DNA from: a virus
IMG/VR virus record: IMGVR_UViG_3300029850_000008
Strand: one strand, 5' to 3'
DNA length: 64,000 nt
Each line of letters opens with the position of its first letter. Positions within the stretch are counted from its first letter, which is position 1. The notes beneath the pieces are model-generated. The model searched no databases. It was not told where the DNA came from and saw nothing but the letters and a program-made list of their open reading frames with translations. The position numbers and the translations under genes are program-made. Below, piece by piece: positions 623 through 25,312 of this stretch.

Positions 623-1334
623 CAGTGGAAGCCAGTACGGTAATTGCTATGCAATTATAGCCGGAAGCGAGATATTGCTGCTAGATTGTGGATGCAGATA
701 CAGTGATATTTTAAAAGGAATCGGATATAAAATCACAAATGTGGTCGGTTGCTTGTTGACACATGAACATGGAGACCATTCCAAATCATATAAAGAGATT
801 TTAAAGGCTGGAATTCCAATCTATACAAATGATGAAGCGGCAGATTCTCTTGAAATTATCACGGGTGAGAAAATGATTGGGAAACAGGAAAAACGCCCAT
901 TTATGGCTGGAAATTTTGTGATTACGCCATTTTATGTGCCACATGATGGCACGCCAAACTATGCGTATCTGGTCAGATTGCCGGATGGTGGAGTTTTCCT
1001 ATATGCTACGGACTTTTTGTATTTGCCATATAAGTTTCAAAAAATGAGGATCAATCATTTTCTCATAGAGTGCAATCATATGGACGAATCACCAGATGAA
1101 AGCTCTATGAAGTACAACCATAGCATTTGTGGGCATTCAAGGCTTTCTGAAGTGAAGAAAATCATAGATATAAATAAAAGTTCTTCGCTCAGAAATGTGA
1201 TTCTATGTCACTTGTCAGAAACGTGGGGGAACCCAGAAATAATGCAAAACGAAGTTCAATCTATTATTCCAGATGTTAATGTTCAGATTGCAGATCCTGG
1301 GCTTGAAGTTGATTTGAAATTAGAGCCATTTTAG
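594..1334 (+). CDS. metallo-beta-lactamase-fold hydrolase
   Basis: THEHGDHS (HxHxDH) motif; ATG 594 inside track ORF 537..1334, overlaps upstream gene end. Confidence 0.8.
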   Translation: MIILKLKVISSGSQYGNCYAIIAGSEILLLDCGCRYSDILKGIGYKITNVVGCLLTHEHGDHSKSYKEILKAGIPIYTNDEAADSLEIITGEKMIGKQEKRPFMAGNFVITPFYVPHDGTPNYAYLVRLPDGGVFLYATDFLYLPYKFQKMRINHFLIECNHMDESPDESSMKYNHSICGHSRLSEVKKIIDINKSSSLRNVILCHLSETWGNPEIMQNEVQSIIPDVNVQIADPGLEVDLKLEPF

Positions 1335-1370
1335 AAAATGAGTGTTTGTTAGAAAGGGTTTAAAGTTACA

Positions 1371-1514
1371 ATGATTACTGCAACAGATTATGTGAAAAAG
1401 AAAAAATCAAGCGATATTAAATGGTTGGAAATGCTGGAAAGCCTTGGATTTAAAAATGTAGGGTTAGAAGAATCTATTCGGCTTTTTGAAGCAATCAGAT
1501 ATTTCCATAAATAA
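1371..1514 (+). CDS. small hypothetical protein (47 aa)
   Basis: ATG 1371 to TAA 1512-1514, fills gap between MBL and SSB genes; weak SD. Confidence 0.3.
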   Translation: MITATDYVKKKKSSDIKWLEMLESLGFKNVGLEESIRLFEAIRYFHK

Positions 1515-1534
1515 CAGAAAGGAAGGTATTGAAA

Positions 1535-1981
1535 ATGAACAAAGTTATTCTGATTGGTCGGTTAACCCGTGATCCAGAAGTGAGATATTCTCAAGGTGAG
1601 GAGTCGATGGCGATTGCACGCTATACATTAGCTGTAGATCGTAGAGGTAAAAAAGATACGAATGAGCAGGCAGCGGATTTTATTAACTGCATTGCTTTTA
1701 GAAAAAACGGAGAATTTGCCGAAAAATATCTTACCAAAGGGATGAAGATTGCAGTTGTTGGAAGAATCCAGACCGGATCATACACGAATAAAGACGGTCA
1801 AAAAGTTTACACCACAGATGTTGTTGTCGAAGAGCATGAATTCGCTGAGAGTAAATCTTCTGGAAATTCAAACTATTCCGATTCTAGCGGTTCTACAAAG
1901 TCAAAACCAGAAAATGCATCGAATGATGGATTTGTAAACATCCCGGATGGAGTTGAAGACGAAGGGCTTCCATTTAATTAA
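1535..1981 (+). CDS. ssb: single-stranded DNA-binding protein
   Basis: MNKVILIGRLTRDPEVRY OB-fold N-terminus, Gly/Ser-rich linker, acidic tail DEGLPF; SD GAAAGGAAGG. Confidence 0.9.
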   Translation: MNKVILIGRLTRDPEVRYSQGEESMAIARYTLAVDRRGKKDTNEQAADFINCIAFRKNGEFAEKYLTKGMKIAVVGRIQTGSYTNKDGQKVYTTDVVVEEHEFAESKSSGNSNYSDSSGSTKSKPENASNDGFVNIPDGVEDEGLPFN

Positions 1982-2066
1982 CCGTCTCAAGAATTCTACG
2001 GCCTCTTAGGTAGCGGGATGAATTGAGACAAAGAATAATATATGTGAAAGGAAGTGACAAAGAATA

Positions 2067-2444
2067 ATGACTTCAAGAAAACCATCAGAGATTATTAAGG
2101 ATTTTTTGGATCTTATGGATAGTTCTCATGACCAGTATTTGAATTCCAAGAAAACAGTGGAAAGTTATGATGAACAGACAATTTCATGGGTTCACAAAAT
2201 CGAAAATGAGGATCTGGCAGAAGAGCGGAGTAAAATTTCTACTGCCTGGCATAAAGAGAGACTTGCTAGAAGAGCAGAGAAAAATAACATGCTTCTGTAT
2301 GAAAAAATCCATGAGTTTTCTATTAATGAGATGAACAAGTCAACTTTGAAGCGTTTAAGAAGTATGCTTGGAAACCAGATTAAGACAGAGGAATATCTGT
2401 CACAGGAAAATAAGGTTTTGAAAAGCAAACGGAGGATAGAGTAA
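2067..2444 (+). CDS. hypothetical protein
   Basis: Track ORF, charged coiled-coil-like, abuts next gene (ATGA overlap at 2444). Confidence 0.55.
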   Translation: MTSRKPSEIIKDFLDLMDSSHDQYLNSKKTVESYDEQTISWVHKIENEDLAEERSKISTAWHKERLARRAEKNNMLLYEKIHEFSINEMNKSTLKRLRSMLGNQIKTEEYLSQENKVLKSKRRIE

Positions 2445-3022
2445 TGGTCATTGGAGTTGATAAGGCTCAACAGGACGGAAAACACATTTTGAAACACAAA
2501 ATGTTGCAAGATATGGGAAATCAGCTGATTGATCTTCCAATTCCTGTTGGGGACTATATCGAAATCACACCGGAAATCAAGGAAGTGATTGACCGGAGAG
2601 GAGATAAGCTAAAGAAAATGGATCTCATTGGTTTAATCAATGTATCTGTAGATACAAAGAGAGACTGTGAAGAGTTATATTCCTGCTTGATGCAGGGGCA
2701 TAAGCGATTTTCGGATAGTTGTTTTTTGGCTCATAATAACGGAATCCGGCTGGTTATTCTTGTTGAAAATCTGGATGGTGTCACGTCAGTAGACAATCTG
2801 GAAAAATGGAAGAATGAAAAACGGTGGAAAAGCTACTTCATTGCCAGAAAAAGAGCGGAAAGAGCTGGAACAAAGGCTCCGAAACCTCCATGCAAACCAT
2901 CTCAGCTGAAACAGATCATGTGGACGATGCATGGAAAATATGGAACAGAATTTGTTTTTTGTAGACCAGAAGAAACGGCACAGAAAATAGTAGAATATCT
3001 TACATCAGATAATAGTAAGTAA
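2444..3022 (+). CDS. putative ERCC4/Mus81-like nuclease (possible junction resolvase)
   Basis: PVGDYIEI ... VDTKRDCEELYSCL resembles the GDY ... ERK..DL..S nuclease signature; by-eye only. Confidence 0.4.
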   Translation: MVIGVDKAQQDGKHILKHKMLQDMGNQLIDLPIPVGDYIEITPEIKEVIDRRGDKLKKMDLIGLINVSVDTKRDCEELYSCLMQGHKRFSDSCFLAHNNGIRLVILVENLDGVTSVDNLEKWKNEKRWKSYFIARKRAERAGTKAPKPPCKPSQLKQIMWTMHGKYGTEFVFCRPEETAQKIVEYLTSDNSK

Positions 3023-3137
3023 ATCTAAAGATCATAAACATCAGATAACCCAGGTGAATCATCCTGGAATACCAATAAAAAGAAGAAAGGAACCGAACCT
3101 CCGGCCGGGGCAATGCTATAGCAGGTTCCTATAAAAA

Positions 3138-5654
3138 ATGACATACAAAGAATTTTTAGAGACAAAGATTGAGCTTGCGACCGAAAGCGGATTTGTTGTA
3201 AGTCAAGAGGAAGTCAACAGTGCATTAAAACCACACCAGAAAGATGCGGTGATGTGGGCGCTAAGAGGTGGCAGAAGGGCGTTATTTGAGAGCTTTGGAC
3301 TTGGAAAGACGGCACAGGAAATTGAATTCTGCCACTTGGCAGCGAAACATAGTGGTGGAAGGGCATTAATTGTGTTGCCGCTTGGAGTAAAACAAGAGTT
3401 TACCAGAGATGCTGTGGAAATTCTTGGCTATGAAAAACCAGAATACTGTCGGACGATGGAAGAGGTGGAAAAAAGTACAAGTCAGATTGTATTAACTAAC
3501 TATGAACGAGTCAGAGATGGAGACATTAGACCGGATTATTTTGTGGCAACTTCTCTTGATGAAGCGAGTGTATTGAGGAGTTTTGGAAGCAAGACCTATC
3601 AAACATTTTTGGACAAGTTCAAGAATGTACCATATAAACTAGTAGCGACTGCTACACCGTCACCAAACAAATACAAGGAACTAATTCACTATGCTGGTTA
3701 CCTGGAAGTGATGGATACTGGGCAGGCGTTGACAAGATTCTTTCAGAGAGATAGCACAAAGGCAAATAATTTGACATTGTACCCAAACATGGAAGATGAG
3801 TTCTGGATGTGGGTAAGTAGTTGGGCATTATTCATCACTAGACCCTCAGATCTGAATCCTAATTATTCAGACGATGGATATGATCTGCCGCCGCTGGAAG
3901 TAAGATGGCATGAACTTCCAGTACACTACGGAGATACCTCTGGTAAGGATGGCCAGATGCAACTATTTCAAGAAGCAGCAGAAGGGTTGAAAGAAGCTGC
4001 ATCAGTAAAGCGTGACAGCATAGATCAGCGAGTGGCCGAAATGAAGAGAATCGTAGAAGAATCACCAAATGATCATTTCTTATTGTGGCATGATCTGGAA
4101 AATGAGCGTCATGCCATTAAAAAAGCATTACCGGATACTGTAGATATTTATGGAGCTATGGACTATGACCTGAGAGAACAACTGGTGATTGACTTTTCAA
4201 ATGGAGCGACCAAATTATTTGCCACAAAGAAATCATTGTCGGGATCCGGATGTAATTTCCAGAGATATTGTCACAGGGAGATTTTTCTGGGAATTGATTA
4301 TGAGTTTAATGATTTCATTCAGGCCGTGCACCGATGTTACAGATTTTTACAGAAAGAACCAGTTGTGATCGATATTATTTACATTGAGAATGAGAGACAG
4401 ATAAAAGAAGCATTGATGGAAAAATGGAAGAATCATAATCATATGGTTTTCAAAATGATAGAAATCGTAAAAAAATATGGACTGACGTCTGCAAATAAAG
4501 AGGAGCGGCTGGAAAGGAAAATGGGAGTGGAAGGAAGTAGAGAAGAAAGAACAGTAAGAGGAAAACACTATGAAGCGGTATATGGTGACTGCGTGGAAGA
4601 AACTAGAACAATGGAAAGCAACAGTGTAGATCTGATCCACACATCAATCCCATTTGGTAATCACTATGAGTATAGCGCCAATTATAACGATTTTGGACAC
4701 AACCAGAATACAGAACGATTCTTTGAACAGATGGATTTTCTTACACCAGAGCTGCTGCGGGTATTGCGTCCTGGAAGAGTGGCAGCAATTCATGTAAAGG
4801 ATCGTGTGCTGTTCGGAAATGCTACAGGTACGGGAATGCCAACTGTCGAACCTTTTCATGCACTGTGTATCAGTCATTATATGAAGCATGGTTTTCAGTA
4901 TTTTGGCATGATTACAGTTGTTACAGATGTGGTTCGAGAAAATAACCAAACATATCGTTTAGGGTGGACGGAACAGTGCAAAGACGGTTCAAAGATGGGG
5001 GTAGGATGCCCAGAATATATTTTACTATTCCGAAAACTCCCGACAGACAGATCTACTGCATATGCTGATGTACCAGTTAAGAAGTCAAAAGAGGACTATA
5101 CCAGGGCGCAGTGGCAGATTGATGCACATGGCTACTGGAGATCATCAGGTGATCGGTTGGTCGGCAAGGAAGAGCTGGAAAACATATCTGTAGATAACTT
5201 GCAGGCGGTATACCGGAAATACAGCCGGGAAAGTGTATACAACTATGAAGACCATGTGAATCTGGCAAAGAAACTGGATGAAAACGGAAAGTTACCGGCT
5301 ACGTTCATGGTGGTTGCACCGGGATCATGGAATCAGTTGGAGGTATGGGATGATATTAACCGGATGCGGACACTGAACACCACACAGAGCCGTAGACGTG
5401 CTCAAATGCACGTGTGCCCGTTACAGCTGGATATCGTTGAGAGAATCATCAATAGATACAGTAATGAGGGTGATACTGTCTATGATCCGTTTGGCGGTCT
5501 TATGACAGTACCTATGATAGCTGTGAAAATGCATAGATTTGGAAAAGGATGCGAGCTGAATGCTGACTATTTCCGGGATGGAATTGGTTATTTGCAAGCA
5601 GTTGAAAACGAGATCGACTCTCCTACGTTGTTCGATTTTATGCAAGAAGTATAG
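3138..5654 (+). CDS. SNF2-family helicase fused to beta-class amino DNA methyltransferase
   Basis: N-half GLGKT, DEAS, TATPSPN, QAVHRCYR helicase motifs; C-half TSIPF (motif IV-like) followed by DPFGG (motif I). Confidence 0.8.
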   Translation: MTYKEFLETKIELATESGFVVSQEEVNSALKPHQKDAVMWALRGGRRALFESFGLGKTAQEIEFCHLAAKHSGGRALIVLPLGVKQEFTRDAVEILGYEKPEYCRTMEEVEKSTSQIVLTNYERVRDGDIRPDYFVATSLDEASVLRSFGSKTYQTFLDKFKNVPYKLVATATPSPNKYKELIHYAGYLEVMDTGQALTRFFQRDSTKANNLTLYPNMEDEFWMWVSSWALFITRPSDLNPNYSDDGYDLPPLEVRWHELPVHYGDTSGKDGQMQLFQEAAEGLKEAASVKRDSIDQRVAEMKRIVEESPNDHFLLWHDLENERHAIKKALPDTVDIYGAMDYDLREQLVIDFSNGATKLFATKKSLSGSGCNFQRYCHREIFLGIDYEFNDFIQAVHRCYRFLQKEPVVIDIIYIENERQIKEALMEKWKNHNHMVFKMIEIVKKYGLTSANKEERLERKMGVEGSREERTVRGKHYEAVYGDCVEETRTMESNSVDLIHTSIPFGNHYEYSANYNDFGHNQNTERFFEQMDFLTPELLRVLRPGRVAAIHVKDRVLFGNATGTGMPTVEPFHALCISHYMKHGFQYFGMITVVTDVVRENNQTYRLGWTEQCKDGSKMGVGCPEYILLFRKLPTDRSTAYADVPVKKSKEDYTRAQWQIDAHGYWRSSGDRLVGKEELENISVDNLQAVYRKYSRESVYNYEDHVNLAKKLDENGKLPATFMVVAPGSWNQLEVWDDINRMRTLNTTQSRRRAQMHVCPLQLDIVERIINRYSNEGDTVYDPFGGLMTVPMIAVKMHRFGKGCELNADYFRDGIGYLQAVENEIDSPTLFDFMQEV

Positions 5655-6669: not shown

Positions 6670-7419
6670 ATGGGAGAAAAAAGAGGCTATGCATTAACAG
6701 AAAGTAATCCATTTTCCGGAAGAATCATAGAAAAGTTAGGAAAACTGCCTGGTGGTGATAGATTATCGCTTGCTTATTTAAAAATGTATATTTTACAGAA
6801 GAATAATATGTTGGAAACATATCTTTTTGAAAAATCTGGATTTTATCCATTGGCACAGGCAATTAACGAAGACGAAGAAATAGTTCGTTTATTGTGTTCT
6901 TATCTTATTTCTACTAATGAGTTGAAGTTGACAGATGATTATAAAGAAAAATCAAAGAAAGAAAACCAGAAGAGAGAAACATTAATTAATGATGATGATA
7001 TAGAAGAGATTATAAAAGTATGGAATGCATCTGGTGCTGATCCCGTAATACGAATTTCTAAGACAACTGATCGTTACAAGATGCTTATTTGCAGGGTAAG
7101 GGAGTACGGAAAAGACGCAGTCATTCAAGCCATTAAAAATGTTTCTTCCAGTGACTTCTTAAGGGGGAAAAATGATCATGGGTGGAAAATTACATTTCAG
7201 TGGTTCGTTAAGCCTAACAACTTTGTAAAAGTATATGAAGGTCAGTACAATAAAAGTAATAACGGTCATCAAAATAATACAGATAAATTTTACATGGTTC
7301 CAAAGGAAATTCGAGAGGACATGGAGCGTAGGGGAGTGATCCGAGATGGAAGCATTAACTATGCGAAGCTATCTGATCGGGATTCGGATATACTTAGAAA
7401 CGCCGGGGTGAAAATTTGA
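6670..7419 (+). CDS. replication-associated protein with conserved phage C-terminal (Phg_2220_C-like) domain
   Basis: C-terminal DFLRGKNDHGWKITFQWFVKPNNFVKVYEGQY pattern; sits directly before primase-helicase. Confidence 0.55.
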   Translation: MGEKRGYALTESNPFSGRIIEKLGKLPGGDRLSLAYLKMYILQKNNMLETYLFEKSGFYPLAQAINEDEEIVRLLCSYLISTNELKLTDDYKEKSKKENQKRETLINDDDIEEIIKVWNASGADPVIRISKTTDRYKMLICRVREYGKDAVIQAIKNVSSSDFLRGKNDHGWKITFQWFVKPNNFVKVYEGQYNKSNNGHQNNTDKFYMVPKEIREDMERRGVIRDGSINYAKLSDRDSDILRNAGVKI

Positions 7420-9998: not shown

Positions 9999-11753
9999 AT
10001 GAGTAATATATACCAGTTAAGAGAACTACTTAGAACACAGACAATTTATGATTTGCCGTTACGAGTTGCATACTATGCAAGAGTCAGCACAGATCATGAT
10101 GAACAGAAAACATCAATCAAGAACCAGGATGATTATTTTAAGGAATTGATAAAATCAAAGCCGAACTGGAAATTTATGGGAGGCTATATTGATGAGGGGA
10201 TTTCTGGAATTGCCGTAAAAAATCGTGAAGATTTTTTGAGGATGATTGATGATGCTAAGAATGGAAAGATTGATTTGATACTGACAAAAGAAATTTCCAG
10301 ATTCGCTAGGAATACACTAGATAGCATCAAATACACCCGTGAACTTTTGGCATGTGGTGTATGTGTATGGTTTATGAATGATGGAATCAATACGATTGAT
10401 GAAGACAGTGAGTTAAGATTGACTATTATGGCAGCTATGGCACAGGACGAAATCAGAAAGATGTCTTCCAGGATTAAATTCGGTCAGGCTCAGTCAATAA
10501 AAAATGGCGTAGTAATGGGAAATTCAAGATTGTATGGTTATGACAAAAAAGATGGAAAACTGACAATCAATGAAGCTGAAGCCGAAATGGTTCGATTCAT
10601 TTTTGAAAGTTATGCATCTGGCAAATGGACAACACCACAGATTGAACGATACCTATATGAAAAAGGGTACAGAAACTATAATGGAGGTAAAATCAACCGT
10701 GGAGTTATCAAAAATATCATAAAGAATCCAAAGTACAAAGGTTATTATGCTGGTGGAAAAGTAAAAGTTATTGATATGTTTACAAAAAAACAGATGTTTC
10801 TTCCAAAAGACCAATGGGTTTATTACAAGGATGATGGATCAACGGTTCCGCAAATCATAGATGAAAAGACTTGGGAAGATGCAAATTATTATATGAAGAG
10901 CCGTGGTGACAATATAAGAAGTCACAGAACGGTGTTTAAGTATGGTAATGTGTTTACTGGAAAGGTAATTTGTGGGATAGATGGTGCTTCGTATTGGCTA
11001 CGTGAACACAAGATACGTGGAAAAGAAAGTGATCCAAGATGGGTCTGTAGTCATAAAATCAAAAATGGAGCAAATTCTTGTCTATCGGTTCCTGTCAGAG
11101 AAAGCGACTTGAAACAAATGGTTGCATCAGCAATCAGTCAAGCAGCTGGAAACTCTAAAGATGTTATTGATTCATATATGAATTATTACTTAAAAGCCAT
11201 TGATGATTCAAAAGAAAAAGAGGGAGAAATAGCAGTTTTAAGAAAAAATATTGAATCCACAAAATTGAAGATGGAGAAAATCCTGGATTACAATTTGAAC
11301 GGATCAATATCTGATGATGAATTCTTAAAAAGAAACGCTGCGTATAAAAAAGAGATTGAAAACGCAGAAGAGAAAATTCTAAAATTGTCTAAAAAACCGG
11401 AAGAGCCGGATTCTATTGCAAGGAAAATCGAACAGATAAGGGAATACTTGGCGAACACAGAAATTGTTTCTGCTGATGACATAACTAAACAAATTGTCGA
11501 AAAATTAATTGAAAAGATAATTATATTACCAGAAGAGGAAAATGGTATAAAAGTCATCAAGTCAGAAATATACCTTATAAATAAGGAACTGTATAAGTTT
11601 TGTAAGGATATGGGGACAAAAAATAGTTGTTCAGATAACGTAACTTTGATCATGTTCCCTAAACAACGCATGGAAATTACTAATGAAAATGCGCATTGTG
11701 TGAACCAGTATAAAAGATTTTCAATAGAATTTTCTCTCTTTGTAAGATTTTAA
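9999..11753 (+). CDS. large serine recombinase (integrase)
   Basis: Resolvase catalytic N-terminus YARVSTDHDEQKTSIKNQ, 584 aa with Cys cluster and long coiled-coil tail. Confidence 0.9.
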   Translation: MSNIYQLRELLRTQTIYDLPLRVAYYARVSTDHDEQKTSIKNQDDYFKELIKSKPNWKFMGGYIDEGISGIAVKNREDFLRMIDDAKNGKIDLILTKEISRFARNTLDSIKYTRELLACGVCVWFMNDGINTIDEDSELRLTIMAAMAQDEIRKMSSRIKFGQAQSIKNGVVMGNSRLYGYDKKDGKLTINEAEAEMVRFIFESYASGKWTTPQIERYLYEKGYRNYNGGKINRGVIKNIIKNPKYKGYYAGGKVKVIDMFTKKQMFLPKDQWVYYKDDGSTVPQIIDEKTWEDANYYMKSRGDNIRSHRTVFKYGNVFTGKVICGIDGASYWLREHKIRGKESDPRWVCSHKIKNGANSCLSVPVRESDLKQMVASAISQAAGNSKDVIDSYMNYYLKAIDDSKEKEGEIAVLRKNIESTKLKMEKILDYNLNGSISDDEFLKRNAAYKKEIENAEEKILKLSKKPEEPDSIARKIEQIREYLANTEIVSADDITKQIVEKLIEKIIILPEEENGIKVIKSEIYLINKELYKFCKDMGTKNSCSDNVTLIMFPKQRMEITNENAHCVNQYKRFSIEFSLFVRF

Positions 11754-11916
11754 ACTAACAAAAGATGAAAAAAGGGCAGAACCTACCAAATAAAATTGCC
11801 ACGGTGAAGAACAAGTTCATCGTGGCTTTGATTATAAGCTATTCTAATGTTTAAGTCAATATTGCAAGAAATAATTGTCTGAATTTTTCAGAATTGTTTT
11901 TTTCGGAATACTAATT

Positions 11917-11980
11917 GGAAATTTTTTGATACCCCCCCTGGGTCTGGTTTTCTACTGGAAATTCCATTTTCAATCTTCTC
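11917..11980. repeat. 64-bp bipartite direct repeat, copy A
   Basis: GGAAATTTTTTGATACCCCCCCT ... GAAATTCCATTTTCAATCTTCTC; first 23-mer 22/23 identical to copy B. Confidence 0.7.
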
Positions 11981-12040
11981 TAAATTCTCTTCTGAAATTC
12001 TAAGAATTTTTTTCAAAAATTTTTTCTCGCCAGACCATTC

Positions 12041-12104
12041 GGAATTTTTTTGATACCCCCCCTACCCTCTATTTTGGAGCCGAAATTTCGATTTTCAATT
12101 TCTC
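12041..12104. repeat. 64-bp bipartite direct repeat, copy B
   Basis: GGAATTTTTTTGATACCCCCCCT ... GAAATTTCGATTTTCAATTTCTC; 124 bp downstream of copy A. Confidence 0.7.
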
Positions 12105-12305
12105 GAAAAACGCTTCAAAAATCCCAGGCAGATTTTGTTCAGATCCAATGGCAGACCTCACCAGAGCGATTTTGACGGCTTTTGTGGCTGGAGTATATGA
12201 AAGTCCTGCTGAAAACCTGGAAACGCCTAAATGGGGCTATAAACGTGCCTATTAATTAGATTACATCGTACCACAAATAAACTCAATATACAAGTGTAAA
12301 CACAA

Positions 12306-12332
12306 ATAGAGGGGCGTTATTATCCCCTCTAT
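12306..12332 (-). terminator. intrinsic terminator of the minus-strand micro-gene operon
   Basis: 9-bp stem ATAGAGGGG/CCCCTCTAT directly after stop at 12332-12334, followed on the minus strand by UUUGUGUUU. Confidence 0.65.
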
Positions 12333-12532
12333 TATTCATAAAAGCCCCATGCTTTGTATTGCTTTTTCAATACTTCCAAAGCAGAATTTTTACTGAGAAA
12401 CTCAGCTCTAGCCGTTTCTCTTGTATATTTCTTGGCACTATACCAGGCGAAACCATTGATCACATACCAGGAATCCCCGTGATCATCGGTTTCCAGCTCA
12501 ATACTATAAACCATCTTTTTCTTACGTGGCAT
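12332..12532 (-). CDS. hypothetical micro-protein (66 aa)
   Basis: Track ORF; SD AAGGAGG 8 nt before ATG. Confidence 0.55.
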   Translation of the reverse strand: MPRKKKMVYSIELETDDHGDSWYVINGFAWYSAKKYTRETARAEFLSKNSALEVLKKQYKAWGFYE

Positions 12533-12568
12533 GGCTTGACCTCCTTATTCTTTTTTTCTGGATATGCT

Positions 12569-12758
12569 AAAAAATCCCGGATATACCGCCGGGGCGGTGC
12601 CCTGTTATGGCCTTGGACATCGGCTACAGTGCTGGCTTTTTCGGCTCCCAGTCAACGCCGCTTTTGCCTCCCTTCGCGATCCGGGCATTAAAAGCGGATA
12701 AAGCCCGGAGAGAAACCCAGCGGCGGACTGAACCGCCCACGGCTTAACCGTCACAGGG
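12569..12758 (-). ncRNA. candidate structured RNA (~190 nt, GC-rich, pseudoknotted), class unknown
   Basis: Closing helix 12600-05/12753-58, three hairpins, interleaved helices 12681-86/12703-08 and 12658-65/12690-97, U6 at the 3' end. Confidence 0.4.
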
Positions 12759-12764
12759 TAGGTT

Positions 12765-12827
12765 TTATAAGAGGCTCAAGCTATAACCTCCGATAAATGA
12801 CAAAACGGCAATAAGAACGTAATACAT
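12765..12827 (-). CDS. 20-codon hydrophobic mini-ORF (MYYVLIAVLSFIGGYSLSLL)
   Basis: Strong SD AAAGGAGGG 6 nt before ATG at 12827-12825; TAA at 12767-12765. Confidence 0.3.
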   Translation of the reverse strand: MYYVLIAVLSFIGGYSLSLL

Positions 12828-12842
12828 ATGTTTCCCTCCTTT

Positions 12843-13103
12843 CTATGCTTGGCAGAAATCGCCCTGCCAGCCTGTTACTAGGATCATTTTCCCGTCATCC
12901 CGGCGGTAAACAACGCCGCAGCCGTCCGCCCATGTGCTCCATACAAGCCAACCTGGACGGCCTACAGTTTCCTTTTTTCTGGAATCGTACCAGATAAAGG
13001 ACGGCTTAATACCTTCTTTTTCTTGATCCAGAGCGTTCTGGATCGCTTGATCTTCCGTGATAATCTGGTTATGATCCTTAAAATGCAAGATATATTTTCT
13101 CAT
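12843..13103 (-). CDS. hypothetical micro-protein (86 aa)
   Basis: Track ORF; SD GGAGGAAAA upstream. Confidence 0.55.
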   Translation of the reverse strand: MRKYILHFKDHNQIITEDQAIQNALDQEKEGIKPSFIWYDSRKKETVGRPGWLVWSTWADGCGVVYRRDDGKMILVTGWQGDFCQA

Positions 13104-13138
13104 GTGTTTTCCTCCATTTTTTTTGATTTTTATAAAAA

Positions 13139-13178
13139 CGCCGCCCGTGGGAATCGAACCAACGAAACTCCAAACGGC
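13139..13178 (-). other. tRNA-like acceptor/T-arm minihelix followed by U run
   Basis: Minus strand GCCGUUU-GGAGUUUC-GUUGG-UUCGAUU-CCCAC-GGGCGGC-G then UUUUU; starts right after a stop codon. Confidence 0.3.
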
Positions 13179-13328
13179 TTAATATTCGATGAATACAAAC
13201 TCTTCATCGGTTTCCAGTTCTGCAACCCGGTTTCCAAGTGTGATAAGCATAAAACCGGCCTTTCTGTAATCCTTGATAAGGCTTTCAAAATGCTCCTTAC
13301 TTGCTGCGGTGATTTTATATTTTCTCAT
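13179..13328 (-). CDS. hypothetical micro-protein (49 aa)
   Basis: SD AAAGGAAC then ATG 13328; the longer track ORF 13179..13448 would run through the ribozyme. Confidence 0.45.
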   Translation of the reverse strand: MRKYKITAASKEHFESLIKDYRKAGFMLITLGNRVAELETDEEFVFIEY

Positions 13329-13341
13329 ATTGTTCCTTTCT

Positions 13342-13404
13342 CGCCTGTCATCATCAGCGCAACGGGGCGGATCGTTGCGGACGCCCTGGAGGGCGTTTCG
13401 ACTA
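13342..13404 (-). ncRNA. hammerhead ribozyme, type II (copy A)
   Basis: UAGUC GAAAC GCCC-UCCA-GGGC GUC^CGCAACG-loop-CGUUGCG CUGAUGA U GAC; predicted cut after C at 13380. Confidence 0.75.
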
Positions 13405-13662
13405 TTTAAGCAGCTTTTCAAATGCTTTTCTCTTTTTGTAATTTTCAACTTGACTTATACTGGAGTCATCAAAAAGGATCTGGAAACCATCAGAAGCAAG
13501 TGCTGCGGCCATTGTGTACGGGTCAATCTTTGGGAACCTGCAAAGGTATTCGACCACGTTCATTCTTATGTTTTTATCATTTTTCGTTCCGATCTTTTCA
13601 AGGTCTCTTTTGTAAACATTAAAAATTCTTTCCTGTTTCTCTTTCACGGTTTCTTTTATCAT
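13402..13662 (-). CDS. hypothetical micro-protein (86 aa)
   Basis: Track ORF; SD AAAGGA upstream; stop TAG overlaps the 5' end of hammerhead A. Confidence 0.55.
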   Translation of the reverse strand: MIKETVKEKQERIFNVYKRDLEKIGTKNDKNIRMNVVEYLCRFPKIDPYTMAAALASDGFQILFDDSSISQVENYKKRKAFEKLLK

Positions 13663-13683
13663 ATATTTTACGTCCTTTCTTTT

Positions 13684-13747
13684 TGCCCTGTCTCATCGGT
13701 GCAGGTGGGGCAGTTCCTACAGACCGCCGGGCGGCGGTTTCGACTAA
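13684..13747 (-). ncRNA. hammerhead ribozyme, type II (copy B, U4C core variant)
   Basis: UUAGUC GAAAC CGCC-GCCC-GGCG GUC^UGUAGG-loop-CCUGCA CCGAUGA GAC; predicted cut after C at 13722. Confidence 0.7.
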
Positions 13748-13975
13748 TTAGCATTCTCGGTGTATGCAACCAGTGTAAACAGTGTTTGTGGTTCCCTCGC
13801 AGCCGTTCAACCACTTTTTGCAGTGGTAGCAGATGCTATTGTAACGGTTGTATTCTGTAGCTTTTCCATATTCCTCGCACTCTTTGCGATATGGACAAGT
13901 GGTGCAGTCCTTTTTGTATTTATGGCAATTTCTTTTTAGCAGTTTTTCCAGCTCTAAAAATCTTTCTTTTGTCAT
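13748..13975 (-). CDS. Cys-rich hypothetical micro-protein (75 aa)
   Basis: Track ORF; 11 Cys including CTTCPYRKEC and CYHC; SD AAAGGAG upstream. Confidence 0.55.
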   Translation of the reverse strand: MTKERFLELEKLLKRNCHKYKKDCTTCPYRKECEEYGKATEYNRYNSICYHCKKWLNGCEGTTNTVYTGCIHREC

Positions 13976-14012
13976 GTTTTCTATCTCCTTTTAGGTTTTC
14001 ATCTCTTTGTTA

Positions 14013-14106
14013 TGTACACAATTATATAATGTTACGTACACAATATCAATGTGCATTTTACACAAAGTTACGCACACATTTTTATATATTTTTGATGTGT
14101 ACACAA
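14013..14106. promoter_or_regulatory. divergent promoter region with five GTACACAA-type repeats
   Basis: TGTACACAA 14013, CGTACACAA 14035, TTTACACAA 14057, CGCACACAT 14071, TGTACACAA 14098; TATAAT at 14120-14125. Confidence 0.45.
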
Positions 14107-14155
14107 CATTGAAACTATGTTATAATTTCCGCATAATGGAAGGGGGGGCCTTTTT

Positions 14156-14338
14156 ATGGCGATGTCAGAAGAACGAAAAAATTATCTGTATTCTTACAAA
14201 AAACAAAGGCTAAAGCGTGTCCCGCTGGATATGCAAATAGCGGACTATGAAGCGCTAAAAGCAGCAGCAGATCAAGCCGGGCAAACTGTCAACGGCTTTA
14301 TTAAACAAGCCATAGCCGAAAAACTGGAGCGGATGTAG
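14156..14338 (+). CDS. ribbon-helix-helix (Arc/CopG-like) protein
   Basis: 60 aa; KRVPLDMQIADYEALKAAADQAGQTVNGFIKQAI fits a beta-alpha-alpha RHH pattern. Confidence 0.65.
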   Translation: MAMSEERKNYLYSYKKQRLKRVPLDMQIADYEALKAAADQAGQTVNGFIKQAIAEKLERM

Positions 14339-24978: not shown

Positions 24979-25050
24979 TGGGCTATCGCCAAGCGGTAAG
25001 GCACATGACTTTGACTCATGTATGCGTTGGTTCGAATCCAACTAGCCCAG
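24979..25050 (+). tRNA. tRNA-Gln (anticodon UUG)
   Basis: Acceptor TGGGCTA/TAGCCCA, anticodon arm CATGA-CTTTGAC-TCATG, T arm GTTGG-TTCGAAT-CCAAC. Confidence 0.85.
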
Positions 25051-25312
25051 CTTGGTAAGATTTATTTACCTTACCAAAATAGCATATCATTTATGCTATT
25101 CCTCCTCATTCATATTACCACCTAGCGGAAAGCTGATAAAAGAACCGTCACAAGGTTCGGGTGGTTTTCTGGTTTGGAAGCCAGGACATGTGCAAAGTTC
25201 CGAACTGTTTACCACATCATAGGGATGTTTGCATGGCCTTTGTTATGGCTGGTGGATAAGAACCATAACAGTGAAGGGGATTTCTTGCAGAATTCAAATC
25301 CCCTTTATCTCA

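Follow-up and report, generated by a model that had tools for sequence, protein, structure and literature searches.

A small accessory-gene operon of a gut-bacterial phage carries two type II hammerhead RNAs, a stripped-down tRNA look-alike and a conserved RNA of unexplained function between its tiny genes, and related phages swap such elements for one another, which suggests that they serve to cut the long message into single-gene pieces. The operon lies on the minus strand (13975-12306) of a 64,000-nucleotide viral sequence (IMG/VR record IMGVR_UViG_3300029850_000008; hereafter the window). A first-pass annotation made from the sequence alone had described six small open reading frames of no assignable family behind a repeat-containing promoter, a clean terminator, hammerheads in gaps 1 and 2, a tRNA-like minihelix with a U-run in gap 3, and a hydrophobic mini-ORF followed by a ~190-nt pseudoknotted RNA in the last large gap. 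Our analysis confirmed this observation, except that the pseudoknot is unsupported. The accompanying proposal, that the unexplained gaps next to the hammerheads hold further processing RNAs, was partly supported: it gained strong comparative support for gap 3, whereas nothing shows that the ~190-nt RNA is a processing RNA.

Architecture of the operon

All six ORFs were present with the annotated lengths of 75, 86, 49, 86, 20 and 66 codons, and none matched Pfam or PHROGs at a meaningful score. The promoter (TTGATA-17-TATAAT) matches 11 of 12 consensus positions and lies among operator-like repeats. The motif TGTGTRCRYA, which is the annotated GTACACAA read on the other strand, occurs at only four sites in the whole window, all of them in the promoter region; the chance expectation is 0.67 and 0 of 100 shuffles reached the observed count. 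A fifth, degenerate copy (TTGTGTAAAA) lies between them. At the other end the operon terminator reads AGAGGGG/CCCCTCT followed by ATTTGTGTTT in DNA form, and it is conserved in L001 and L010, two of the roughly 100 related phage loci that we collected and numbered with the prefix L. A BLAST search of the 2-kb unit against 50,697 GenBank phages found no match, and a profile search of genome contigs with ORF4 gave no confirmed locus.

Features of the operon and their coordinates in the window
Feature	Position	Strand	Description
Ribbon-helix-helix gene	14156-14338	+	60 aa, divergent from the operon
Promoter and operator region	14011-14105	-	-35 TTGATA (14049-14044), -10 TATAAT (14026-14021); four strict repeats plus one degenerate copy
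ORF1	13748-13975	-	75 aa, Cys-rich, no family; homologues in L001, L003, L084-L090
Gap 1 hammerhead, type II	13682-13745	-	U4C core variant (CCGAUGA); predicted cleavage between C13722 and U13721; loop I GCCC can pair with 3' tail GGGC as a pseudoknot
ORF2	13402-13662	-	86 aa, no family; homologues in many related loci
Gap 2 hammerhead, type II	13339-13403	-	Canonical core CUGAUGA; overlaps the ORF2 stop codon by 2 nt; predicted cleavage between C13380 and C13379; loop I CGCC can pair with 3' tail GGCG as a pseudoknot
ORF3	13179-13328	-	49 aa
Gap 3 tRNA-like element	13134-13178	-	Acceptor 5' strand 13178-13172, GG linker 13171-13164, T-arm 13163-13147 (loop UUCGAUU), acceptor 3' strand 13146-13140, discriminator G13139, U5 13138-13134; starts directly after the ORF3 stop codon
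ORF4	12843-13103	-	86 aa; most widespread gene of the operon family (507 clusters, no Pfam domain)
Mini-ORF	12765-12827	-	20 aa (MYYVLIAVLSFIGGYSLSLL), SD AGGAGG
5' domain of the large-gap RNA	12715-12759	-	Y-shaped three-helix junction: P1 ACCCUG/CUGGGU, P2 ACGG-UUAAG-CCGU, P3 GGCGG-UUCAGU-CCGCC; then a U-rich stretch
Remainder of the ~190-nt RNA	12569-12714	-	Hairpin CCGGGC...GCCCGG; block GGCGUUGACUGGGAGCCGAAAAAGCCAG, shared with the L098-type phages; terminator-like hairpin CCCGG-CGGUAUAU-CCGGG plus A and U6 (12593-12569)
ORF6	12332-12532	-	66 aa; a rare family, with a single 90%-identity cluster besides the exact sequence
Operon terminator	12298-12331	-	7-bp stem AGAGGGG-loop-CCCCUCU followed by AUUUGUGUUU

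The AlphaFold model of ORF4 is confident (pLDDT 88.9) and shows a predicted small beta-rich fold without a significant PDB neighbour, the best matches being Sm/SH3-like small barrels (E 0.2).

Hammerheads and tRNA-like elements across related phages

A default Rfam search at gathering thresholds reported only two tRNAs in the window and missed both hammerheads, so such operons are probably under-annotated. With permissive filters, the gap 2 element matched Hammerhead_II (RF02276) with 40.2 bits, above the gathering score of 37, whereas the gap 1 element scored 31 bits (E 8e-4), below the threshold because of its U4C core. The gap 2 copy has the complete core (CUGAUGA, GAAA and the cleavage site GUC/C), while the gap 1 copy retains GAAA and GUC/U and departs from the core consensus at U4C. 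Both have the type II layout, with stem II (3 bp) open and stems III (6 bp) and I (6-7 bp) capped by loops, together with the pairing between loop I and the tail 3' of stem II. The U4C variant is conserved with covarying stems in more than 12 related phages; this change is reported to lower hammerhead activity in vitro, yet to suffice in vivo in a viroid. Stems III and I and the loop I/3' tail pseudoknot change in a compensatory way between subfamilies, with other subfamilies showing GGUCU:AGACC and AGCCU:AGGCU. Across 88 related loci, 82 structure-checked hammerheads lie on the sense strand, against 1 on the antisense strand and 0.05 per shuffle.

The gap 3 element, which we term a tRNA-like element (TLE), has an acceptor-like stem GCCGUUU/GGGCGGC (7 of 7 pairs, three of them G·U), an 8-nt linker (GGAGUUUC) and a T-arm GUUGG-UUCGAUU-CCCAC (4 of 5 pairs, with a U·C mismatch), followed by the discriminator and the U-run. 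It shares with tRNAs a 7-bp acceptor stem stacked on a 5-bp T-stem with loop UUCRANY, but it has no D arm, anticodon arm or CCA, and it is not a tRNA: ARAGORN called only the two true tRNAs at 24979 and 25313, and Rfam gave no tRNA (RF00005) hit in 12200-14200 even at E <= 10. Single-sequence folding of gap 3 was no better than shuffles (z = -0.64), and therefore only comparative evidence was used. A covariance model (R1) built only from copies in other phages, without window-like copies, found this site with 33.6 bits (E 6e-6), against 14.6 bits for the next hit; it was the only hit below E 0.4 in the 64 kb, on both strands with filters off. The same model gave 105 hits at E <= 0.01 in loci found through ORF4 or ORF6 and 7 more in loci found through an unrelated protein, all on the operon strand.

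In the TLE alignment 94% of stem cells are paired, against 65% in shuffles, and 10 of 12 pairs change on both sides. MAFFT alignments with native linkers put the 5' acceptor strands out of register, and each linker was therefore trimmed to 8 nt or excised for the model and the pair counts; in the covariation alignment the 5' strand was chosen by best pairing and the linkers were excised, which inflates the percentage paired. Among 90 distinct copies, 88 have U within 2 nt after the discriminator, none has CCA, 81 have GG in the linker and 70 have a stop codon within 12 nt upstream. Many TLEs, such as type E with loop AUCACUA, lack a canonical T-loop. RNase Z of Bacillus subtilis is stimulated about 200-fold by such a U (PMC10100781), and the phage's own tRNAs are CCA-less with U downstream.

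The related loci form a mosaic operon family in which homologous gene pairs can be separated by different elements. The locus L001 has ORF2-hammerhead-ORF4, whereas L004 has ORF2-like-TLE-ORF4-like. Phage L001 is otherwise ~95% identical to the window but lacks ORF3 plus its TLE as one block, which is bounded by a 13-nt repeat (ATGAGAAAATATA). The slot just upstream of ORF4 homologues holds a TLE in about 52 loci, a hammerhead in about 8, pistol in L058 (69 bits) and a twister-like element in L063; equivalent slots also hold pistol in L064 and a twister-P1-like element in L077. The window itself has only hammerheads among ribozymes, its two other gap elements matching no ribozyme family in Rfam 15.

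The conserved RNA of the last gap

The 20-codon mini-ORF is a real gene, as it has an SD and synonymous changes dominate among relatives; a 28-aa relative with the same F(I/V)GGY core occurs in L079. The ~190 nt that follow are nearly invariant among relatives while the flanking ORFs accumulate synonymous changes, and in every relative recovered ORF6 is preceded by the mini-ORF and this RNA. All five substitutions in the predicted stems keep pairing, and the CCGGGC...GCCCGG hairpin shows one compensatory G-C to U-A change in L010. P1 and P2 of the 5' domain covary in L079, L098 and L100, and the domain stands alone as a gap element in L077 and L103. Single-sequence folding of the ~190-nt RNA was no better than shuffles (z = -0.73), and a long-range RNAalifold model was set aside because its closing helix has no counterpart in L098-type relatives. 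No match to twister, twister-sister, pistol, hatchet, HDV-like or hairpin ribozymes was found in 12200-14200 at E <= 10, nor over the related L098-type region. The RNA is rare, being found only in window-type phages and as a partial relative of L098 type; three further IMG/VR pattern scans returned no new copies, and a 19-mer from it hit three unrelated MAGs, which were discarded because about four such hits are expected by chance in 596 Gb.

Interpretation and relation to known systems

We consider it somewhat more likely than not that the unit is a repressor-controlled accessory-gene operon at the integrase end of a temperate phage of gut Clostridia, belonging to a large mosaic family of micro-gene operons in which almost every intercistronic gap carries a module that cuts RNA. 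In this view the primary transcript would be cut by self-cleavage at the two hammerheads, the first being a slower variant, and at the gap 3 TLE by host tRNA-maturation enzymes, with RNase P acting at the 5' side of G13178 and RNase Z after G13139, the latter helped by the U-run and not inhibited by a CCA. The TLE is most likely not a ribozyme but a substrate mimic for host tRNA-processing enzymes. Each micro-gene would become its own mRNA with defined, structured ends, whose stability and translation no longer depend on whichever cassette recombination has placed next to it. The last gap is different: the peptide gene, of membrane type, is followed by a composite RNA with a Y-shaped, tRNA-like-shaped 5' domain, conserved blocks and an intrinsic terminator 40 nt before ORF6, which most likely acts as a leader that gates ORF6 expression, although this leader/antiterminator idea rests on little. 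What the sequences establish is that the elements exist, are conserved, covary, replace one another and, but for the single antisense hammerhead, lie on the sense strand; every cleavage event, the enzymes involved and the role of the ~190-nt RNA are inferred. It should also be noted that RNase P cleavage would leave the ORF3 mRNA ending exactly at its stop codon, which could hamper termination.

Other readings of the TLEs appear less likely. They could be intrinsic terminators, attenuators or 3'-end protectors that set polarity along the operon, as every TLE is followed by U-rich sequence, a U-run after a helix can act as a terminator, a weak terminator-like site was listed inside the window's TLE (13159-13143), and type A copies are followed by a second small hairpin and more U residues. 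This is possible but unlikely, because a terminator needs no GUUCGAUUC T-loop, 7+5-bp geometry or GG linker, yet these are conserved across subfamilies with different sequences; moreover the U-run is short (4-5 nt), the adjacent helix is often AU- or GU-rich, the downstream genes have no promoters of their own, and the same slots hold self-cleaving ribozymes in relatives. It is more doubtful still that hammerheads and TLEs are kept mainly at the DNA level as linkers for cassette exchange by homologous recombination, with secondary or vestigial RNA activity, or that TLEs are simply decayed phage tRNA genes. The mosaicism, the block missing from L001 and the presence of identical elements beside different genes fit this idea, but DNA-level homology patches would not require the compensatory changes in hammerhead and TLE stems, the strand bias is strict, and decayed tRNA genes would not repeatedly lose exactly the anticodon arm while keeping a 12-bp acceptor/T stack. 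An att-site remnant in gap 3 was rejected, since the 5' acceptor strand lies 8 nt from the T-arm, the elements recur at several slots per operon, and the integrase is a serine recombinase.

For the last gap, the suggestion of the first-pass annotation that the ~190-nt RNA is an undescribed self-cleaving ribozyme draws on its position in a ribozyme-rich operon family, its conservation well above the neighbouring coding sequence and the absence of a match to known families. We regard this as improbable, because the RNA is rare, much larger than the other gap modules, composite and ends in a terminator hairpin, and no conserved core could be defined from the few variants. Equally improbable is a type I toxin-antitoxin-like module, or a stand-alone small RNA released from the operon. 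The peptide is entirely hydrophobic and under purifying selection, and prophages of Bacillota often carry such modules; however, no promoter-like site for an antisense RNA was found on the plus strand over 12300-12800, although a consensus scan cannot exclude one, and in L079/L098-type phages the related mini-ORF lies upstream of a 98-aa gene and not next to the RNA, such that the two are separable.

The hammerhead part of this arrangement is not new. Perreault et al. 2011 (PMC3088659) described multiple type II hammerheads, with the same loop I/3' tail pseudoknot, flanking single genes in prophages next to integrases, showed in vitro cleavage for a Clostridium scindens array and proposed processing of polycistronic RNA. 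Both systems have several ribozymes per operon, placed between small genes of unknown function next to an integrase; here one copy is a conserved U4C variant, and the hammerheads share the operon with non-ribozyme tRNA-like modules and a large conserved RNA. The first-pass annotation was also correct that pistol, hatchet and twister-sister were found by searching near hammerhead- and twister-associated phage genes (Weinberg et al. 2015, as summarised in Harris et al. 2015, PMC4604425). The present unit is a ribozyme-associated phage micro-gene operon. TLEs as an interchangeable fourth module were not found in our literature search or in Rfam, although we cannot exclude that tRNA-like motifs were noted in Weinberg et al. 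2015 or its supplement. The closest analogies are mitochondrial tRNA punctuation, plant mitochondrial t-elements and mascRNA/menRNA from MALAT1 and MEN-beta (RF01684), in which a tRNA-shaped module, with an acceptor plus T-arm stack and without decoding function, recruits RNase P and RNase Z within a longer transcript to make ends. TLEs of relatives gave their best Rfam match to mascRNA-menRNA, but at 25-27 bits against a threshold of 42.5, and the window copy gave no hit; this is analogy and not membership, the TLEs being found in a bacterial virus and missing the anticodon arm altogether. TLEs also resemble minimal RNase P and RNase Z substrates (acceptor-T-arm minihelices, and CCA-less precursors with a downstream U in B. 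subtilis; Pellegrini et al. 2003 and 2012, as cited in PMC10100781), with a 12-bp acceptor/T-stem stack, a T-loop, a discriminator followed by U within 2 nt and no encoded CCA, but those are laboratory substrates or true tRNA precursors, whereas here the shape is a conserved natural element inside an mRNA.

More tentatively, temperate phages of gut Clostridia may punctuate their mosaic accessory operons with interchangeable RNA-cutting modules, using besides three classes of self-cleaving ribozymes a previously undescribed family of anticodon-arm-less tRNA mimics that hand the cut over to host RNase P and RNase Z, in a bacterial-virus version of mitochondrial tRNA punctuation. The ~190-nt RNA would then be a further member of this toolkit, either a regulator or a new catalytic RNA. 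The biological role of bacterial and phage hammerhead, twister and pistol ribozymes has been sought since 2011-2015. If a tRNA mimic that can only recruit host endonucleases replaces them between the same genes, then the selected function is most simply to make a cut, for cistron separation or insulation, and not ligation, circularisation or ligand-controlled switching. It would also add a new kind of tRNA mimicry in phages, a new class of RNase P and RNase Z mRNA substrates in Bacillota, and natural counterparts of the ribozyme and tRNA spacers used to insulate synthetic operons and guide-RNA arrays.

Architecture of the operon and its hammerheads

The minus-strand unit contains six ORFs of 75, 86, 49, 86, 20 and 66 codons, located where the first-pass annotation had placed them, and none has a Pfam or PHROG family. 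Upstream lies a near-consensus promoter (TTGATA-17-TATAAT) set within TGTGTRCRYA repeats, which occur nowhere else in the 64-kb window (four sites, 0.67 expected by chance). A divergent gene encoding a 60-aa ribbon-helix-helix protein, Arc-like by PHROG, is the likely repressor. The unit ends in a hairpin with a U-rich tail, and a gene for a large serine recombinase lies about 550 nt beyond. Between the recombinase gene and the operon terminator are two 56-nt direct repeats, 75% identical and 124 nt apart, each ending in GATACCCCCCCT; these may be binding sites for the recombinase or a directionality factor near attP.

Using permissive filters, the Rfam search identified a Hammerhead_II in gap 2 (40.2 bits, against a gathering score of 37) and another in gap 1 (31 bits, E 8e-4), whereas the default gathering run missed both. 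Each copy has the type II layout (stem II open) and a 4-bp pseudoknot between loop I and the 3' tail. The gap 1 copy reads CCGAUGA instead of CUGAUGA. This U4C form (C instead of U at core position 4), which falls below the Rfam gathering score, is the majority state of a subfamily found in more than 12 related phages (among them loci L001, L003, L004, L005, L008, L011, L020, L023, L035, L037, L043 and L067, the L numbers denoting related phage loci), where the stem III sequences differ but stay paired and the stems covary. A few members carry CUGAUGA; sister copies in L022, L024, L025 and L030 have this form. Perreault et al. 2011 note that U4C lowers activity in vitro but suffices in vivo in a viroid.

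Coordinates of features in the window and in related phage loci
Sequence	Feature	Coordinates (strand)
Window	Serine recombinase gene	9999-11753 (+)
Window	56-nt direct repeats	11884-11939 and 12008-12063 (+)
Window	Six-ORF unit	13975-12306 (-)
Window	Operon terminator hairpin and U-rich tail	12331-12298
Window	Y-shaped 5' domain of the ~190-nt RNA	12759-12715
Window	20-codon mini-ORF	12765-12827 (-)
Window	13-nt repeat at the starts of ORF3 and ORF4	13316-13328 and 13091-13103 (-)
Window	tRNA-like element, gap 3	13178-13134 (-)
Window	Hammerhead_II, gap 2	13403-13339 (-)
Window	Hammerhead_II, gap 1	13745-13682 (-)
Window	Non-coding spacer between tRNA-Gln and tRNA-Met genes	25052-25312 (+)
L001	Region compared with the 13-nt repeat	3990-4013
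L002 (also L004-L008)	Promoter-like site and G+C-rich repeat region	4521-5000
L012 and L013	Element with tRNA-like outline or hairpin plus U-run	about 2935-2975
L058	Pistol	950-1016
L063	Twister-P1-like	452-513
L064	Pistol	740-807
L077	Twister-P1-like	6685-6744 (-)
L083	IS605 OrfB/TnpB-type gene	1307-2557 (-)
L094	Element with tRNA-like outline or hairpin plus U-run	about 2925-2965
L097	tRNA-like element with sub-threshold mascRNA-menRNA score	391-437
L098 (also L099-L102, L104, L106, L107)	~465-nt G+C-rich non-coding stretch	2798-3262
L103	tRNA-like element with sub-threshold mascRNA-menRNA score	2346-2385
L108	tRNA-like element with sub-threshold mascRNA-menRNA score	121-160

A tRNA-like element family in related operons

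To place the operon in context, related loci were collected. The 86-aa ORF4 is the most widespread gene of the operon, and it led to 8 IMG/VR loci and 67 metagenome loci, mostly from human gut. Exact-sequence look-ups of ORF6, of ORF4 relatives and of a neighbour protein from locus L079 added about 25 more, one of which lies in the genome of butyrate-producing bacterium SS3/4 (Clostridia). All of the operons found with longer flanks are mosaic strings of small ORFs, and most are recognisably next to a recombinase gene. ORF4 forms 507 clusters without any annotation; its predicted structure is confident (pLDDT 88.9) but has no significant structural neighbour. In one relative of the window phage (L083) an IS605 OrfB/TnpB-type gene is inserted between ORF6 and the recombinase gene. 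In another branch of the family (L002, L004-L008), a strong promoter-like site (TTGACAATTTGACAATATAGGCATATTATAGCC) lies downstream of the operon terminator, followed by about 400 nt of G+C-rich sequence with many GATCAGC-type repeats and no convincing ORF.

Gap 3 holds a member of a recurrent tRNA-like element (TLE) family. The window copy consists of a 7-bp acceptor-like stem (GCCGUUU/GGGCGGC), an 8-nt linker (GGAGUUUC), a T-arm (GUUGG-UUCGAUU-CCCAC), a discriminator G and UUUUU, and it starts right after the ORF3 stop codon. It is not a tRNA, as neither ARAGORN nor the Rfam tRNA model calls it. The same architecture, with quite different stem sequences (subtypes A to E), fills gaps in the relatives, where a descriptor found 122 copies on the sense strand, 6 on the antisense strand and 13.5 per shuffle. 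Within 22 distinct copies, 94% of stem cells pair, compared with 65% in shuffles and 40-57% in slid controls, and ten of 12 pairs change on both sides, although the 5' strand was picked by best pairing and the linkers were removed for this analysis. As an independent check we built a model (R1) from 19 copies that exclude the subtype of the window. R1 found exactly one significant hit in the whole window, at gap 3 (E 6e-6; next hit E 0.41), along with 105 hits at E <= 0.01 in the ORF4 and ORF6 loci, all on the operon strand, and 7 more in loci recovered through an unrelated protein.

Across 90 distinct copies, U follows the discriminator within 2 nt in 88, CCA never does, GG is in the linker in 81, and a stop codon lies within 12 nt upstream in 70. 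Longer linkers form a mini-hairpin (GCA-GACGG-UGC, GCG-AGCGG-CGC) that also covaries. By inference, the GG could mimic the D-loop GG that docks on the T-loop. Among slots in L012, L013 and L094, and just upstream of the ORF4 homologue in L016, L019 and L027, some hold elements with the TLE outline (closing stem, hairpin with 7-nt loop, U-run) but no T-loop sequence, for example CACCGCC-GACAGCGUA-CCGGGG-AGCGUUU-CCCCGG-GCGGU-UUUUU, while others hold a plain hairpin plus U-run; these may be degenerate TLEs or simple terminators.

TLEs and ribozymes occupy the same positions. Between homologues of ORF2 and ORF4, phage L001 has a hammerhead and phage L004 has a TLE. The slot just upstream of ORF4 homologues holds a TLE in about 52 loci, a hammerhead in about 8, a pistol ribozyme in L058 (69.3 bits) and a twister-P1-like RNA in L063 (49.6 bits, E 5e-8). 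Further pistol and twister copies occur in intercistronic slots of L064 and L077, respectively, although the twister hits (49.6 and 64 bits) fall below the gathering score of that family (67.2). Both hammerheads and TLEs are carried by 47 of 88 loci. The window differs from the ~95% identical L001 by one block, ORF3 plus TLE. ORF3 and ORF4 both start with ATGAGAAAATATA, and the block missing from L001 is bounded by this 13-nt repeat, which suggests cassette gain or loss by short-homology recombination.

The mini-gene and the conserved ~190-nt RNA

The 20-codon ORF in the large gap is real: between the window, L001 and L010, and across L083-L093, it changes mostly at synonymous sites. Tiny hydrophobic peptides sharing its F(I/V)GGY core recur in these operons and evolve under purifying selection (20 aa here, 28 aa in L079/L098-type phages); in L079 the relative lies on the reverse strand, about 90 nt after the TLE.

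The following ~190 nt are almost invariant while ORF6 and the mini-ORF drift. All five substitutions in stems predicted by RNAalifold keep pairing, including one G-C to U-A exchange; however, the long-range closing helix of that model has no counterpart in L098-type relatives. A local Y-shaped 5' domain covaries in its P1 and P2 helices and occurs alone as a gap element in L077 and L103. In L098-type phages, a related family that includes a prophage of butyrate-producing bacterium SS3/4, this domain heads a ~465-nt G+C-rich non-coding stretch that follows a 98-aa gene and shares the block GGCGUUGACUGGGAGCCGAWAAAGCCAG with the window. L105 lacks about 158 nt of this stretch, between GCGGA repeats. 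The window RNA ends in a terminator-like hairpin plus U6, 40 nt before ORF6, with no promoter in between; ORF6 expression should therefore depend on read-through. No Rfam family matches either the window RNA or the L098-type stretch. We regard the window RNA as a composite conserved RNA of unknown function, most likely a leader, although a new ribozyme is not excluded.

Proposed processing of the operon transcript

In summary, the arrangement described in the first-pass annotation is confirmed, apart from the pseudoknot it had assigned to the ~190-nt RNA, which is unsupported. Its reading of the unexplained gaps as candidates for further processing RNAs is supported only in part. The hammerhead component is already known: Perreault et al. 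2011 reported hundreds of bacterial hammerheads near integrases in prophages, often several flanking single genes, showed in vitro cleavage of three arrays and suggested processing of long phage RNAs. Harris et al. 2015 confirm that later ribozyme classes were found through such neighbourhoods. The TLE as an interchangeable module and the conserved ~190-nt RNA are the new and testable parts. Searches of 8 million papers, which did not extend to the text of the key 2015 paper, found nothing that links tRNA-like elements to these operons, while a 2023 survey mentions unspecified tRNA-like candidates in phages. The closest functional analogues are mitochondrial tRNA punctuation, plant t-elements and mascRNA. 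TLEs of relatives (L097, L103 and L108) give their best Rfam score to mascRNA-menRNA (RF01684), but at 25-27 bits and E about 0.3 this is well below the threshold, an analogy rather than membership.

Because three ribozyme classes whose only known chemistry is self-scission share slots with the TLE, the simplest common function would be an RNA cut. The TLE has what the host tRNA-end enzymes need: a 12-bp acceptor/T stack with a T-loop, which is the minimal RNase P substrate, and a CCA-less 3' side with U right after the discriminator. In B. subtilis this U stimulates RNase Z about 200-fold (PMC10100781). The tRNA-Gln and tRNA-Met of the phage itself, whose genes are separated by about 260 nt of non-coding sequence, are also CCA-less with U downstream. 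We therefore propose self-cleavage at gaps 1 and 2 and RNase P/RNase Z cleavage at gap 3, giving single-gene mRNAs. While the elements, their covariation and their sharing of slots are observed in the sequences, every cleavage step in this scheme is inferred. A plausible benefit in a constantly reshuffled operon is insulation, in that each cassette would keep a fixed 5' end and RBS context whatever lies upstream.
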